In this document: positions 24,369-29,881 of the stretch, one piece after another
Layout: each line of letters starts with the position of its first letter
Numbering within the stretch: the stretch's first letter is position 1
Assembly (NCBI GenBank): GCA_019056785.1
Contig: DXJV01000059.1
Coordinates: 32,001 to 96,000, forward strand
DNA: 64,000 nt
Direction of reading: 5' to 3'
Source: Candidatus Heimdallarchaeota archaeon
Lineage (GTDB): Archaea; Asgardarchaeota; Heimdallarchaeia; JABLTI01
The notes under the pieces: model-generated
Told to the model about the DNA's origin: nothing
Databases searched by the model: none
Seen by the model: only the letters and a program-made list of their open reading frames with translations
Made by a program: the position numbers and the translations under genes

Positions 24369-25193
24369 TTAATCGCTTTTCTGTTGCTGATGTAGTCGTT
24401 TCTCTTTCAAGAGATTGCGAGAACAGATATATGCAGTATAATGTTGAGGGCGACTAAAGCCCAATTTTAAAGCAAATCGGGTGGAGATTTCACTATCAGA
24501 ATCGAAATGCAATTTAATCCCTCGCTCCAAACATTCTCCTATTAATGCTGTTGCTGCAATGGTAGCAAATCCCTTGCGGCGATAATTAGGGTCAGGGTCA
24601 GTCACAACGAGCAGGTTAAATTCATCATCATAAATGGGCATTGCCGAAGCAGCAATGCTTACTACTAACTTTTTTTCGTCGTGAATAATACAATAGCCCA
24701 TCCCTCGCTCTATGAAATCAGCTGGCGACTTGTAAAAAGGTAAGATTGTTGGGGCAATTTTCGGATTGATGTTTTCGAGGATTTCATAAGAAATTTTCTT
24801 CAAGCTATACCCTTTTGGTAATTCCTTTTTGTGTAATTTTCTGTTCGCCTTTAGTAGGTTACTTTTTCGGGATAAAAATTTCGTTCTCGGAAAAGCCGTT
24901 AAAATCAGGTGTTTCCTTGCTAAGCGCAACCAGAAATCATTCGGAAAGAGTAAAAGTTTATTTTCTGAGATTTTGGCTATAACTTCCTTAGCATTTTTAT
25001 TCCGGCTCAACCCCCCGACGAATTCCATTACCTTGTAGGTTAATAGGGCGACTTTTGGTCGAGCTAAATTGTCCACAAGAATAACCCCTGTTTGATCCTT
25101 TAGGATGGTTTTAATCATGACGCGTAAAAATCTGTGTTTGTTAAACATTGTGAGAAGCTCAGCATGCCGTTCAGGGGGGAATTCGCTTAGCAT
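24369..25193 (-). CDS. GNAT-family acetyltransferase
   Basis: TDP..YRRKGFAT motif A; S..FALKLGF motif B. Confidence 0.85.
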   Translation of the reverse strand: MLSEFPPERHAELLTMFNKHRFLRVMIKTILKDQTGVILVDNLARPKVALLTYKVMEFVGGLSRNKNAKEVIAKISENKLLLFPNDFWLRLARKHLILTAFPRTKFLSRKSNLLKANRKLHKKELPKGYSLKKISYEILENINPKIAPTILPFYKSPADFIERGMGYCIIHDEKKLVVSIAASAMPIYDDEFNLLVVTDPDPNYRRKGFATIAATALIGECLERGIKLHFDSDSEISTRFALKLGFSRPQHYTAYICSRNLLKEKRLHQQQKSD

Positions 25194-25275: not shown

Positions 25276-26979
25276 TTACCAGCGCTTTTTTTCTGCTTCT
25301 CGTGACTTTCTTTTATCCTGTGGAAAGTCAACCAGCGCGACAGTTTCGCCATATTTGGTGATAGACTTTCGCTCTCTAAATTTAACCAGAATGGGGATTC
25401 GTAAAGCAGCACCCGTTAGAACACCTGTTCCTCGTTCCAGATAGGGGAGCAATCCCAAGTATCGGGTAGCAAATCCTGCAAGAATGTCTTTGGCGACTAA
25501 AAGATCTGATTGTTCTGTGATACGGAAAATTAATTTCGAATTGCATTGCGAAAGAATGTCTCTATCGAGTCCACTGGGTCTTTGACTAACAATGCCTAAG
25601 CCGGCTCCCATTTTTCGTCCTTCTCGGGCAAACCATTCAATAGCTTTCTTTGTTGGGGATTCACCTATGGGAATAAATCGATGCGCTTCCTCTATTAAGA
25701 GAAAGACCCTTTGGATATCTTTAATTTCCATTGATCTTCGCAGCCGGTTAAGATAACTCGAAACGAAGATTCTTCGCGCTCGCTCATCAAGCATGGGTTG
25801 GCTTACATCTAAAATTGTTGCTTGTTCAGGCGAAAAATGACTTTTCACACTTGTTAAACTTGCGAGTTCTTTCGTCTTATCACTTGTTTCTCTTCGACGA
25901 TATTTTTCATCAAATTCTTGAATGATTTGACCGGAATAATGACAAATTGCTCCATTAAGCTCTGTGAAGAACCCCATTTTGCGAAAGACTTCCAGTTTTC
26001 GTACTATGGGTTTTCGGCTAGCACCATCAATAATGCCATTTTCAATTCCAAAGCCTAGAAAACCATCGATATCATAGCAAATTGCATTTCCCAAAGAATC
26101 ACGGATATCATACCAGGTATTCTCGATCTTTTCTTTTTGGGTGTGGGTCAAGTCATACATAAAGCTAAACATTTCAGAGGTGCTAATTTCACTAAAGAGC
26201 ATGGTTATTGGTTCAATGGAGAGATTGACGTCTAATTTCTTTGCCATTTTTTGCATGTCTTGGAAATAGCGAGGTGGATATTTATTGGGATAAAGAACTT
26301 TTACAAAATATTTGGGTAGGGAATTGTCTCCTTTTGGTCCTACTGTTTGTGATAGCCCCCAATATTCACCATGGGGGTCAACAATTAACGAAGGGAGCCC
26401 AAACTCTGCAAACTCTTCAATAATAACTCCTGCAGCATACGATTTCCCGCTGCCTCGAGAGCCAAAAATCGCCAAACCATCTGAGCCCAAGACATTCGGA
26501 TTTAACTTTACAGGGATCTCTCCTGAATGTTCAGCAAAATAGCCAATAAACATTTCCCCCCGTTCTTTCCCAAAAACAGCCAACTCGAGTAATTCGTCAT
26601 TACATTCAAAAACCATCGACCCGGGGGAAATCCACGCATTTGGTGTTGTAATGTTCATTTTATCCGGAGCAATACTCGAAACCAGGACAATGTCAATTAT
26701 ATGAAATTCTGTAAATTCTAACATTGCACGTGATTCTAACGAACGTCGTAATCGATCCATCCAAAATTTGGCATACCGTTCATCACTCAATTGCGGGTTT
26801 ACAGCACGAATGTTCATAACGCGTCCAATAATTGTTTGTCCCGTTGCAAGAGGGATACTTACAAAATTCCCTTCGACAATGTCTTCATGCTCAACATTTT
26901 CATCGAGCCTGACAAGTAAGGTATCTTGCTCTGTTGATGCACCAAGAACGAAACCAATTTTTTTTGCCCGGGAATTCAC
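25276..26979 (-). CDS. HerA-like ATPase/DNA translocase (HAS barrel plus DUF87)
   Basis: N-terminal HAS barrel (IGFV..GNFV..IIGRV); Walker A GSRGSGKS; DPHGEY; Walker B IEEAHRF; REGRK.G; SQRPS; probable GTG start 26979 (ORF track 27006). Confidence 0.9.
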   Translation of the reverse strand: MNSRAKKIGFVLGASTEQDTLLVRLDENVEHEDIVEGNFVSIPLATGQTIIGRVMNIRAVNPQLSDERYAKFWMDRLRRSLESRAMLEFTEFHIIDIVLVSSIAPDKMNITTPNAWISPGSMVFECNDELLELAVFGKERGEMFIGYFAEHSGEIPVKLNPNVLGSDGLAIFGSRGSGKSYAAGVIIEEFAEFGLPSLIVDPHGEYWGLSQTVGPKGDNSLPKYFVKVLYPNKYPPRYFQDMQKMAKKLDVNLSIEPITMLFSEISTSEMFSFMYDLTHTQKEKIENTWYDIRDSLGNAICYDIDGFLGFGIENGIIDGASRKPIVRKLEVFRKMGFFTELNGAICHYSGQIIQEFDEKYRRRETSDKTKELASLTSVKSHFSPEQATILDVSQPMLDERARRIFVSSYLNRLRRSMEIKDIQRVFLLIEEAHRFIPIGESPTKKAIEWFAREGRKMGAGLGIVSQRPSGLDRDILSQCNSKLIFRITEQSDLLVAKDILAGFATRYLGLLPYLERGTGVLTGAALRIPILVKFRERKSITKYGETVALVDFPQDKRKSREAEKKRW

Positions 26980-27070
26980 TATGGAAACCTTCCAATTACA
27001 AAACAATACCTTTGCTGTTTAAAATTATTTTTTCAATATTTCTAAAAAACACCTCGAAAAAGAGGGAGAA

Positions 27071-27089
27071 AACCGAGAAAAACTCGGTT
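27071..27089 (-). terminator. Hairpin plus T-rich tract ending the Cys-ladder gene cluster
   Basis: Perfect 7-5-7 inverted repeat AACCGAG-N5-CTCGGTT overlapping the stop at 27088-27090, followed on - by TTCTCCCTCTTTT. Confidence 0.6.
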
Positions 27090-27411
27090 ACTTGTAAAAA
27101 ATTGAATAGAAGAACCACTTTATCATTTTCAAAGAGTTCACAAGTGACTCCTTAAAACCAATTCTTCCGGAACCACTGCAGCTATTCTGGCAGCTATTTG
27201 TACATGAATCCGCACATGATTCCCCACATGCACTACAGATGGCATTTGTCAATCCTGTTGCAAGTCCAGTTAATAACAAGACGAAAAAGACAATCACCAG
27301 AACAACAATGATTATTGGCAAAACAATCGCAAAAATGATGATTAAAATCCTCCTGCGACGCTTTTTCTTAGCCTCGAAGTCAGGATCCGGTACTTTAACT
27401 CCTTCGGCCAT
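27088..27411 (-). CDS. Small membrane protein with 6-Cys (xxSC)n ladder; paralogue of 27523..28101
   Basis: KKKRRRR, long TM with LP, CSACGESCADSCTNSCQNSC, C-terminal KWFFYSIF helix; AGGTTGA RBS-like sequence. Confidence 0.8.
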   Translation of the reverse strand: MAEGVKVPDPDFEAKKKRRRRILIIIFAIVLPIIIVVLVIVFFVLLLTGLATGLTNAICSACGESCADSCTNSCQNSCSGSGRIGFKESLVNSLKMIKWFFYSIFYK

Positions 27412-27522
27412 TTAAATCAACCTTTTTATATGAGATTAATATGTTTTATTAAATACTAATTTACCCAATAAAAGTATTCTCCTTTTGCACAATCGCTTGG
27501 GAAAAAGGAATGTTTTTCTTCC

Positions 27523-28101
27523 TTATTTGAAGAAAACCCCTATAATCGTGTAAAAAGTCCATTTTAAGAGCTTGATTGAGCTGGAGGTTTTTTCTGCTTG
27601 TTGAATGGTGCTTCCACAATCGCAATTACAACTACTACAAGAATTTGCGCAGCTATCACCGCAATTACAACTAGCATTGCAAGAGTCACTGCATCCCTGG
27701 CAGCAAGAGTCTGAACAAGAATTTATACAAGAGTCAGAACAGTTTTGACAACATTGTGATGAACAACTTTGAAAAGCACCAACTAGAGCGAGAAAGATAA
27801 AGACAAACACACCGATGATGATGAGTAGTGGCAAAACTACTGCAAAAACAATAATGAGGATTATATTTCGCCGTTTTTTCTTTTTTCTCAGCTCGTCTTC
27901 GCTTTCAGGTTGTTGGTCTATTATTGTTCCTTCTAATTGCTCTTCTGGTGGTTCTTGTGATGGGAATTGGTCAACAGGTGTCGTTTCCTCGGCTCCTACC
28001 TTGTCATTTGGCGGAGGAGGAATTTTAGAAAAAGCCTCTTCAGTATCTTTGTAAGGCTCATCGATACCTTCGAAAGCTCCTTCCTCTTTTTTTTCTGCCA
28101 T
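27523..28101 (-). CDS. Membrane protein with 17-Cys ladder
   Basis: Acidic N-terminus, KKKKRR, TM with LP, 17 Cys in about 50 aa, C-terminal KWTFYTII helix. Confidence 0.82.
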   Translation of the reverse strand: MAEKKEEGAFEGIDEPYKDTEEAFSKIPPPPNDKVGAEETTPVDQFPSQEPPEEQLEGTIIDQQPESEDELRKKKKRRNIILIIVFAVVLPLLIIIGVFVFIFLALVGAFQSCSSQCCQNCSDSCINSCSDSCCQGCSDSCNASCNCGDSCANSCSSCNCDCGSTIQQAEKTSSSIKLLKWTFYTIIGVFFK

Positions 28102-28197
28102 AAAAACTCAACTTCTAAGTCCAATACTGAACAAAAATGTGTAAAAATATAAAAAACTATTGTAAATAGTCAGAAGAGAATAATTAAGCTTTTTCTC

Positions 28198-28890
28198 TTA
28201 AGTCTTATTTTCCTTTTTATTTCTCTTTTGTGCGACTTGTTGTCGGGCTTTTTCCAGTTCCTCTTCGACTATTGCATAGACTTTCCGGACGCGGATATTA
28301 GTGTTCCGTTCTGGATCGCAACTATTGTTAAGGTGCAGTGGGCAAGTTCGACATTTCTCGCGATTGGCATTTCTTCCCCTGCTAATACCATATAATTGAT
28401 TTCCGAGAAATAAAAGAGCAAATAGGATTAATCCCAACCACCATCGATGCGGAATAAAAAAGGTTTGAATTATTAACGCAAGATAGGCTCCTATGCCAAA
28501 ACCAGAAACAAAGCGAGAGAAGGCTTTTGTCCATTTATTTTTCAATCCTATCAGACGATGAATGATTGCTAACCCAAATCCTGCAAATGGAAGAGAGGCG
28601 GTCACCCAATAATTGTAACGAAAAATGGTTGGCACAGTAAAAAAAAGCACCGCATAGATAAAAATTGCAGAATAAATCATTGAACAACCAATACAAAAAC
28701 CAAACTCACCAATCCGGAAAAAGTGATCTTCATATTCACTACACATGGGATGGTGGGCTAAAAACTTCCAGGCACGGAGTTTGAAAATCGCCACTTGTGC
28801 ATGAAAAGGAGTGCGTTTTTTTAAATAAACCTCCTCCGAAAGGTAGGGGGTTTTGATTTGTTCCGGTGATTTTTCAGGCAATGCAAACAA
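28198..28890 (-). CDS. DUF2085-like 4-TM membrane protein with His/Cys metal-binding motifs
   Basis: HHPMC....H....G....CIGC..IY; four TMs with R..SG.G.G; C-terminal CRTCP.H....C. Confidence 0.65.
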   Translation of the reverse strand: MFALPEKSPEQIKTPYLSEEVYLKKRTPFHAQVAIFKLRAWKFLAHHPMCSEYEDHFFRIGEFGFCIGCSMIYSAIFIYAVLFFTVPTIFRYNYWVTASLPFAGFGLAIIHRLIGLKNKWTKAFSRFVSGFGIGAYLALIIQTFFIPHRWWLGLILFALLFLGNQLYGISRGRNANREKCRTCPLHLNNSCDPERNTNIRVRKVYAIVEEELEKARQQVAQKRNKKENKT

Positions 28891-29059
28891 CCATTCAATT
28901 GTAATATGAATTTTGAAATAATTGGTTAATGCTCTTAATTAAGATTTTCAAAGATGTAGGGAATTTCCTTTGAGAAAGTAGGGAATATTCCTTTGTTACA
29001 ATAAGACTCATAAAGTAGAAGGACAAATAATAATTGCTTATCAAAAGGATGTGAGATAG

Positions 29060-29284
29060 ATGCCTGCAATTGATCGTTACGCAATTAAATATAGAGATGA
29101 AGTTAAACACTTCAATAATCATGTTGATGCAGTTTCTTACGTTTTGGGTCTCCCTTCAAGCACTGAAAAGATCGAAATTAAAAAATTCGGTAGTTGGCAA
29201 AAAGTCCTTATTTATCTTGAAGGAGAAATAAATGAAATCCAACGCTTAGCTTCAATTGTTCTTTCCTGGGAAAAGAAAGATTAG
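29060..29284 (+). CDS. Small hypothetical protein
   Basis: ATG with purine-rich upstream sequence, protein-like composition, isolated in an intergenic gap, T-rich tract after the stop. Confidence 0.6.
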   Translation: MPAIDRYAIKYRDEVKHFNNHVDAVSYVLGLPSSTEKIEIKKFGSWQKVLIYLEGEINEIQRLASIVLSWEKKD

Positions 29285-29881
29285 CCTTTTTCTCTCTTCA
29301 AGATTTATTCTCTAGCAAATTTCTTCCAGCGATTTTTACTTTGTTTGGTTTTCTCGCACTAGTTTATGTAAGGCAAATATTTCCTAATTTTTTTAACGTA
29401 AGGAATACTCTGGATAAAAAAAAGTCAGGCAAAAACACACCCAGGTTGGATAAGCGTTGTTTCTCTACCAAAGTAAAAAGTGGCGATAAGGCGACCATTT
29501 CAAGCGTCTTGCAAACCTTCTGGGTTTTTAGGTTTACAATATTCTTTCGTGGTCTTTTTCCTTCAGAAATCCCATATAAAAGCATTACTTGACCCTTGCT
29601 TTTATAGGTCTTTTTGAAGGCTTTCTTATCGCCAAGTAAATAATAGCTCTTAATCTTAAAATACCTTTCATAAACATAGCAAAGGCAATTTTGGAAGGTT
29701 TTAACAGAAAAATGACCCCAAAAATAACATCTCGGTGTTAATTTTTTGGGGAAAGGTAAAACTCGTTTGGTTATTCCTATTTCGCTCCTATCAATTTATT
29801 TATTTTCTTAGTCATTTTCTTTTTAAGTCGAAGCGATTACACACACAAAACAACAGATACTTTTGGATGTTTGAAACAAAA

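Follow-up and report, generated by a model that had tools for sequence, protein, structure and literature searches.

Cysteine-ladder proteins and a divergent DUF2085 homologue form a conserved, probably metal-binding membrane unit in Heimdall-group Asgard archaea

The three-gene locus

The window considered here is a stretch of 64,000 nucleotides from a Candidatus Heimdallarchaeota archaeon (assembly GCA_019056785.1, contig DXJV01000059.1), the genome of which is an Asgard metagenome-assembled genome (MAG) of 2.87 Mb and 82.5% completeness. This work deals with three open reading frames (ORFs) on its minus strand, whose coordinates were confirmed and which encode, in order of reading, proteins of 230, 192 and 107 amino acids. 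The first (28198..28890), which starts at a TTG codon, specifies a membrane protein with four transmembrane (TM) helices that resembles the DUF2085 family and is called here the 4-TM protein, as judged from the ORF itself, its homologues, an AlphaFold2 (AF2) model and hhalign profile comparisons. The second (27523..28101) and the third (27088..27411) code for a long and a short membrane protein characterized by a dense array of cysteines, termed here the cysteine ladder.

Both ladder proteins are built on the same frame, consisting of an acidic tail (Pro-rich in the long protein), a polybasic patch (KKKKRR in the long form, KKKRRRR in the short one), an uncharged segment containing the motif IIxFAxVLP (about 33 residues in the long protein), the ladder, and a C-terminal amphipathic helix with the motif KWxFYxI. 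The ladder of the long protein (residues 113-162; 27616..27765, minus strand) holds 17 cysteines in 50 amino acids, has a net charge of -5 and lacks Lys and Arg, and that of the short protein (residues 59-78; 27178..27237, minus strand) holds 6 cysteines in 20 amino acids. The two are paralogous, with 45% identity (E 2e-15), in agreement with an earlier note made from the letters of this DNA, which had described them as paralogues with 6 versus 17 cysteines inside a common frame.

The same note had seen three co-oriented genes that end at a perfect hairpin, and this arrangement was recovered. The hairpin (27071..27089, minus strand; AACCGAG-AAAAA-CTCGGTT) has 7 perfect base pairs and a 5-nucleotide loop, overlaps the stop codon of the short ladder gene by 2 nucleotides and is followed by a U-rich tract. 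Its folding energy is -14.1 kcal/mol (z -3.6), and none of 200 shuffled sequences folds as well. A strict scan for intrinsic terminators did not flag it, and it is nevertheless likely to mark the end of the transcript. A Rfam scan of 26900-29800 found no RNA family.

Conserved linkage of the ladder and 4-TM genes

Among 400 genomes of the phylum, 22 carry clear ladder genes, and every one of these belongs to f1 (genera g1 and g2) or f2 (genus g7), two families of one Heimdall-group Asgard class. In 20 of these 22 genomes the ladder gene directly adjoins an orthologue of the 4-TM gene. In the remaining two (G004 and G052) the ladder and 4-TM genes are each located at a contig end, on separate contigs, and their orientations are consistent with a disrupted adjacency. 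In a close relative, G007, the assembly of which is 85% complete, neither the ladder gene nor the 4-TM gene was found. The earlier note had staked its idea on the two genes staying together in other genomes, and this expectation has been borne out both by the adjacency and by a fusion of the two in a sister family, described below.

The association persists under two different gene orders. In family f1 the 4-TM gene, the long ladder gene and the short ladder gene follow each other on one strand, while in genus g7 the 4-TM and ladder genes are convergent and lie 8-30 bp apart or overlap. When the neighbours of 13 loci were clustered, the 4-TM and ladder genes were the only gene clusters common to the f1 and g7 contexts; the other neighbours are unrelated between the two families, comprising a HerA-like ATPase and a GNAT acetyltransferase in f1, and an amidohydrolase and helicases in g7.

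A third arrangement is provided by genus g4 of family f3 (Hodarchaeales), in which proteins of 266-321 amino acids (P0112, P0115-P0121) combine an N-terminal CxxxC ladder, two TM helices and a 4-TM domain with the motif HSHH..CTGC. Profile comparison by hhalign relates the split and fused 4-TM families with a probability of 95.7% (E 1e-8), and the fused family to a set of true DUF2085 proteins with 95.8%. Of 22 f3 genomes, 11 contain the fusion at full length, and it was not found in f1 or f2, a complementary distribution suggesting that the split and fused forms replace each other. When longer fusions of the 4-TM family were sought in the range of 484-2000 amino acids, none turned up, which is weak evidence. 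Taken together, the adjacency under two gene orders, the fusion and the joint absence from G007 establish by comparative genomics that the ladder and 4-TM families form a conserved unit, and it is very probable that the pair is functionally linked.

Some further genes lie next to this unit. A 74-residue ORF (29060-29284, plus strand), divergent from the 4-TM gene and without any family match, occupies the same place in six f1 loci and is absent from the g7 loci. Downstream of the ladder genes, a HerA/DUF87-type ATPase (25276-27006, minus strand) and a GNAT acetyltransferase (24369-25193, minus strand) are found in all f1 loci and in no g7 locus, and they probably constitute a unit separate from the ladder and 4-TM genes.

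The cysteine-ladder family

An alignment of 16 ladder proteins from related genomes shows a conserved frame with an insertion of variable size inside the ladder, so that the frame around a variable-length core proposed in the earlier note is a property of the whole family, in which ladders span 17-61 amino acids and contain 3-21 cysteines. The pairing of a long with a short ladder protein recurs in at least five genomes (G001, G006, G008, G009 and G010). The distance from the polybasic patch to the first ladder cysteine is nearly constant at 33 residues, of which about 22 are very hydrophobic and the rest form a milder spacer. The ladders themselves are made up of 34% Cys, 18% Ser and 11% Asn, with only 0.6% Lys plus Arg and about 1% Phe, Trp, Tyr and His taken together, and carry net charges of -1 to -11.

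The periodicity of the ladder is best described by the tetrad consensus C-[S/C/G]-[N/D]-[S/A]-C. The distances between successive cysteines are 4,1,3,4,4,4,1,3,4,4,2,4,4,3,2,2 in the long protein of the window and 3,4,4,4,4 in the short one. Over 42 family members, 58.5% of ladder cysteines are followed by another at +4, against 26.5% in composition-preserving shuffles, and 44% by another at +8, against 24%, an excess indicating that the regular spacing is more than chance. Tandem Repeats Finder reported only 2.4 copies of a 12-nucleotide unit, in the short gene, and the ladder DNA is thus not a recent DNA repeat. The number of ladder cysteines, counted by hand, is even in 22 proteins and odd in 20, and this lack of preference argues against a ladder that is fully paired by disulfides.

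The family is genuine, though of narrow distribution. Among 1.84 billion representative proteins, a profile search returned only 26 clusters at E<=1e-10, and a search of the ESM Atlas with the ladder protein gave no usable match. The weak tail of the profile search consists of two groups of unrelated-looking bacterial proteins. One comprises CxxxC peptides with a twin-arginine (Tat) signal (P0069, P0075, P0079, P0086, P0105, P0106, P0110, P0111). The other (P0060, P0062, P0065, P0066, P0068, P0073, P0074, P0083, P0085, P0089, P0093) is a probable family with a signal peptide, the motif FGGGLPSS, an acidic stretch, a basic patch, a TM helix, a stretch rich in Cys, Ser and acidic residues, and a C-terminal PVYVP; its resemblance to the ladder proteins is one of layout. 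Weak matches elsewhere in the window's own genome (L003, L004 and L005) proved to be antisense or unrelated ORFs.

Two ladder ORFs are interrupted by an in-frame TGA at the position of a rung. In G005, which belongs to the same genus, the short paralogue (L089:6861-7221) reads CGEA-TGA-ANSC, with the frame and the KW helix conserved beyond the stop. Selenocysteine was considered at this rung and rejected, as G005 was found without SepSecS and without a tRNA-Sec above the cut-off; the gene is probably a recent pseudogene or the stop an assembly error. The second case is a TM-plus-cysteine-ladder ORF in G138, from another class of the phylum (L077:1452-1846), where the TGA falls exactly at a rung (CNSS-TGA-DTCC) and the ladder resumes after it. 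This genome encodes SepSecS (442 bits) and a tRNA-Sec above the cut-off, which makes the rung a candidate selenocysteine; no structured 3' element was detected for this ORF (z 0.6), and no DUF2085-like gene adjoins it.

The 4-TM protein is a remote DUF2085 homologue

The 4-TM protein has 33 homologues, all annotated as hypothetical and all from Asgard/Heimdall MAGs, none of which carries a relevant Pfam domain (one entry lists PF07690). Two cysteine-containing clusters stand out in its sequence. The N-terminal His/Cys cluster (residues 46-69; 28684..28755, minus strand) has the form HHPxC-x5-H-x9-CxxC, reads HHPMC..H..CIGC in the window's protein and is placed by the AF2 model just before and at the start of TM1. 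The C-terminal cluster (residues 180-191; 28318..28353, minus strand), with the form CxxC-x7-C and the sequence CRTCPLH..C, precedes a long basic helix (residues 193-229). In 37 aligned sequences, H46, H47, C50, H56, C66 and C69 of the first cluster and C180, C183 and C191 of the second are invariant. The AF2 model (mean confidence score pLDDT 90) consists of an N-terminal helix, the HHP loop, a beta-hairpin (57-66) that ends in the CxxC at the start of TM1, four TM helices (67-85, 94-114, 119-144 and 150-171) and the long basic C-terminal helix.

Although no Pfam or NCBIfam model reaches its cut-off on this protein, several lines of evidence connect it to DUF2085 (PF09858), a family of membrane proteins without known function. 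The 4-TM gene is the best match to PF09858 in the whole genome, with 18.9 bits against a gathering cut-off of 25 and an alignment covering model positions 10-89 of 90, and three of its relatives likewise give full-length matches below threshold (16.6, 12.9 and 11.9 bits). A hhalign comparison of the 37-sequence family with 12 Asgard DUF2085 proteins, all above the cut-off, yields a probability of 95.0% (E 3.9e-8) over 99 columns, and the neighbours of the 4-TM protein in the ESM Atlas include DUF2085 clusters. The two families share the (S/A)HH...H...CxxC arrangement just before TM1 together with the helices that follow, in the form AHHPxC..H..CxGC in the 4-TM family and SHH..H..CARC (CxRC) in true Asgard DUF2085 proteins. 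On the other hand, the window's protein has an additional cysteine in the first cluster, the C-terminal CxxC..C cluster and the long basic helix, and it lacks the DW.(S/T)Q...RES.N motif present in the TM2-3 loop of true members. On these profile and motif comparisons the 4-TM protein is a remote, divergent DUF2085 homologue, as had been suspected. The C-terminal cluster is missing from the fused family. Structural searches add little: Foldseek against the PDB found nothing at E<=0.001, and VIA-align returned generic four-helix matches only, such as halves of MFS transporters (Z<=8.1).

Canonical DUF2085 has a different distribution, being present in 85 of 151 sampled genomes of the phylum, yet the 27 genomes taken from the window's class yielded none; none of 20 canonical loci has a ladder neighbour. 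A different family of the phylum has fusion proteins in which canonical DUF2085 follows PF07155, a domain resembling the S-component of energy-coupling factor (ECF) transporters (L108:895-1929, L116:1102-2172), a possible hint that DUF2085 works with modules for the uptake of small molecules or metals.

Alternative partners of the 4-TM family

The ladder is not the only companion of this family. Orthologues without a ladder (in g3, g6, g8 and, as an additional copy, in g7) invariably lie behind the gene for a DUF4389 protein of 94-98 amino acids with two TM helices and a few cysteines, which looks like an alternative small partner. In a subfamily of 196 amino acids, the 4-TM gene overlaps the end of an upstream gene similar to class-II glutamine amidotransferases (PF13230, GATase_4), an overlap that suggests translational coupling. 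The window's genome itself contains a 4-TM paralogue of 276 amino acids, which shares a locus (G000:C88:20276-26179) with cofD (TIGR01819), a radical S-adenosylmethionine (SAM)/SPASM gene (TIGR04084) and a gene for a membrane protein of 158 amino acids; the order of these genes is the same in six genomes of the genus, with the radical SAM gene fragmented in one of them. In a maximum-likelihood tree the type of partner follows the 4-TM clade, with 5 changes, the minimum possible, against a mean of 15.6 after shuffling; as relatives share labels, the tree demonstrates clustering of partner types and not co-evolution. The idea of the earlier note that the 4-TM protein may be a maturase dedicated to the ladder is not supported by these data: its closest relatives are paired with DUF4389 and GATase_4 proteins, and the module, as a family, is not ladder-specific.

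Membrane topology

The distribution of Lys and Arg places both termini and the TM2-3 loop of the 4-TM protein in the cytoplasm (the C-terminal region has a mean of 12.5 such residues), so that both cysteine clusters are predicted at the cytoplasmic membrane interface. The side on which the ladder lies is a more delicate matter, since the split and fused forms give opposite indications. In the split proteins, the ten residues before the TM segment bear a charge of +4 to +8 and the ladder after it is net-negative and free of Lys and Arg; by the positive-inside rule, a polybasic patch before a single strong TM helix followed by an acidic ladder predicts that the ladder is outside. In the fusion, the ladder has no signal peptide and is separated from the strongly basic His/Cys domain by two helices with a Kyte-Doolittle (KD) hydropathy of 1.9 each, similar to core TM helices. 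A ladder located two TM helices before a cytoplasmic domain should itself be cytoplasmic, on the same side as the His/Cys site. The external ladder of the earlier note is therefore upheld by the charge pattern of the split proteins and contradicted by the fusion. It was considered whether the 33-residue hydrophobic segment might form a re-entrant hairpin, which would return the split ladder to the cytoplasm; this is unlikely, the first 22 residues being uniformly very hydrophobic and the short paralogues showing no conserved turn in the middle of the segment.

A proposed membrane-held thiolate array and its alternatives

The explanation that we favour, to which we assign a probability of roughly 0.4 as a whole, is that the three genes specify a lineage-specific membrane unit of Heimdall-group Asgard archaea. 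Its first component would be the divergent DUF2085-family protein, with both termini in the cytoplasm and a metal-type His/Cys site (HHxxC..H..CxxC plus CxxC..C) at the membrane-cytoplasm interface. The second would be one or two single-pass proteins, each composed of a very hydrophobic TM helix, an acidic, metallothionein-like ladder free of Lys and Arg, and a short amphipathic helix that may keep the distal end of the ladder attached to the membrane, so that both ladder ends would be membrane-held. The ladder would bind ions of thiophilic metals (Zn, Fe, Ni or Cu) as an array of thiolates, probably folding back on itself in the manner of twin-CX3C proteins so that CxxxC pairs could generate Cys4 sites, and the DUF2085-like protein would act, through its own His/Cys site, as the partner on which the ladder docks or is loaded. 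The case for metal-thiolate chemistry is drawn from the metallothionein-like composition, the absence of parity in the number of cysteines, the anoxic habitat (sediment or hydrothermal vent) and the twin-CX3C precedent; as a mechanism read from sequence it is a tentative proposal that could well be mistaken.

Several observations weigh against this explanation. Metallothioneins mostly use CxC, CxxC and CC spacings and not CxxxC. No gene for a metal transporter, a metal chaperone or a thioredoxin is conserved near the ladder/4-TM pair. The charge of the split proteins would put the ladder outside, away from the cytoplasmic His/Cys site of its partner, in conflict with the cytoplasmic ladder of the fusion. 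Moreover, the ladder folds with low confidence in the AF2 model of the fused protein (pLDDT about 30), and the nearest 4-TM relatives are paired with DUF4389 or GATase_4 proteins instead, so that the 4-TM protein may serve as an adaptor of a general kind and not as a handler of metals.

The topological conflict gives rise to a rival explanation, which we regard as unlikely, in which the split proteins insert with the N-terminus inside and expose an acidic ladder on the cell surface, its far end being held by the amphipathic helix. There the ladder might bind metal or metal sulfide, carry persulfide or cross-link, and the 4-TM protein would contribute through its TM helices alone, or else help in assembly or delivery. 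In addition to the charge asymmetry, the first 22 hydrophobic residues (KD about 3.4) resemble an ordinary single TM helix followed by a spacer, the bacterial look-alike peptides carry a similar ladder behind a Tat-type signal, and a conserved WW is found at the outer end of TM4 of the partner; this rival is difficult to reconcile with a partner whose invariant His and Cys residues all lie on the predicted cytoplasmic side, and with a fused ladder that lacks a signal peptide and is two normal TM helices away from that domain. The adaptor idea, in turn, takes the DUF2085-like protein as a membrane scaffold or regulator that recruits varied small partners, with ladders as one class of client and the His/Cys site as structural zinc, independent of ladder chemistry. 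The coupling of sister clades to DUF4389, of another clade to an overlapping GATase_4 gene, of a further paralogue to the CofD and TIGR04084 genes, and of canonical DUF2085 to ECF S-component-like domains all speak for it. As it explains neither why the ladder, of all partners, became covalently fused nor what the ladder does, it is an unlikely account of the locus when taken alone, and it is compatible with the favoured explanation, not exclusive of it. That there is no functional link whatsoever, the adjacency being synteny inherited among close relatives, is very improbable: while all ladder-bearing genomes indeed fall in one class, and kin are not independent, inherited synteny does not account for two gene orders with no other common neighbour, for the domain fusion in a third family, or for G007, where neither gene was found.

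Two further rivals assign the cysteines to covalent modification. By analogy only with eukaryotic DHHC S-acyltransferases and cysteine-string protein, the ladder could be a juxtamembrane cysteine string to which acyl or prenyl groups are added at the cytoplasmic face by the 4-TM protein, which likewise combines four TM helices with a cytoplasmic, interfacial Cys/His-rich site; the cytoplasmic ladder of the fusion and the Asgard host would suit such a scheme. It is improbable, given that the DHHC model (PF01529) gave no match on the 4-TM gene at E<=1 in the genome search or at E<=0.1 with hmmscan, that no DHHC structure appeared among the fold matches (Foldseek at E<=0.001; VIA-align gave generic matches only), that the 4-TM protein lacks the DHHC motif and has its site before TM1 and not in the TM2-3 loop, and that a strongly acidic, polar ladder is unlike known acylation strings. 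A broader proposal is a long shot: an archaeal enzyme system for cysteine-string lipidation or thiol modification, in which the interfacial His/Cys site of the DUF2085-like protein would covalently alter the juxtamembrane ladder on the cytoplasmic side, making the pair a counterpart of DHHC enzymes and cysteine-string proteins among the archaea most closely related to eukaryotes. So is its variant of a folded-back ladder whose Fe(Cys)4 or Zn(Cys)4 centres, arranged in a row, would make a membrane-anchored metal or electron wire. The weakest mechanistic reading, already weakly refuted and scarcely credible, is the one in which the ladder is the CXXX-repeat core of a precursor akin to ribosomally synthesized and post-translationally modified peptides (RiPPs), modified, for instance by a radical SAM/SPASM enzyme, and then released. 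The earlier note had listed this among its options, and two facts recall it: the ladder proteins match TIGR04117 ('Cys-Xaa-Xaa-Xaa repeat radical SAM target') below its cut-off of 50 bits, with scores of 35.1 and 26.1, and a 4-TM paralogue lies near a TIGR04084 radical SAM/SPASM gene. These matches span the hydrophobic segment and the low-complexity ladder. The TIGR04115 maturase was not found in this 82.5%-complete genome, where the best hit reaches 39.8 bits against a threshold of 350, lies on another contig (C88) and is a TIGR04084 protein (343.7 bits); no protease or exporter gene is conserved beside the pair; and a protein that stays in the membrane is the more natural reading of a conserved TM anchor and C-terminal helix. 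The 18-position repeat model TIGR04114 gave no match at E<=0.01, and is equally silent in control genomes.

Relation to known cysteine-rich systems

A literature search found no described system with this layout and no work on the function of DUF2085, and the ladder/4-TM pair thus appears as an undescribed unit that, as far as can be read from sequence, is probably metal-binding at the membrane. It shares partial features with several known systems. One of them is the bacterial CXXX-repeat system (TIGR04117, Syntroph_Cxxx target, with its TIGR04115 maturase). In its peptides, too, the N-terminal segment is hydrophobic and leads into a series of cysteines placed four residues apart, the intervening residues being small or acidic. 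Those peptides, however, are about 100 amino acids long, begin with a Tat-like RR signal, have no C-terminal helix and are defined by a radical SAM partner, whereas the ladder proteins have an internal signal-anchor, an acidic N-terminal tail, the KWxFY helix and a DUF2085-like partner, and no maturase.

The resemblance to metallothioneins applies to the ladder segment only and not to the whole protein. Cysteine makes up about one third of the segment, Ser, Asn, Asp and Gly are abundant in it, aromatic residues and His are essentially absent, and its length varies; a Pfam scan of the ladder proteins gave no metallothionein match, and metallothioneins are soluble, while the ladder proteins are predicted to be anchored in the membrane at both ends and to have a membrane partner. 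As for the spacing, the twin CX3C motifs of the small Tim proteins (Tim9/Tim10) form disulfides with each other across a helical hairpin and, in the reduced state, bind zinc. Their CxxxC motifs on helices offer a structural precedent for a ladder that, by analogy, may fold back as a hairpin; small Tims nonetheless have just two such motifs, occur as soluble proteins of the intermembrane space and do not resemble the ladder family in sequence.

Among membrane-associated cysteine-rich proteins, the eukaryotic tail-anchored CYSTM modules, which have been proposed to take part in stress or metal handling (PMC2804304), are also small; their disordered, Pro-rich head lies in the cytoplasm, and the segment next to the membrane is rich in Cys. 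In CYSTM proteins the cysteines lie within or at the C-terminal TM helix, with no period-4 ladder and no partner gene, whereas those of the ladder proteins come after the TM segment and are followed by the amphipathic helix; no Pfam match to CYSTM (PF12734) was obtained at E<=0.1.

Implications

None of the three proteins of this locus reaches the threshold of a curated family, and the confident model of the 4-TM protein matches no solved fold specifically. The existence of fused and split forms constitutes a natural experiment on topology and docking. If the ladder is indeed a membrane-tethered metal-thiolate array, it would give an anaerobic Asgard archaeon a new means of holding thiophilic metals at the membrane or of handing them over, and, if true, the ladder/4-TM pair would provide the first functional handle on the widespread DUF2085 family.

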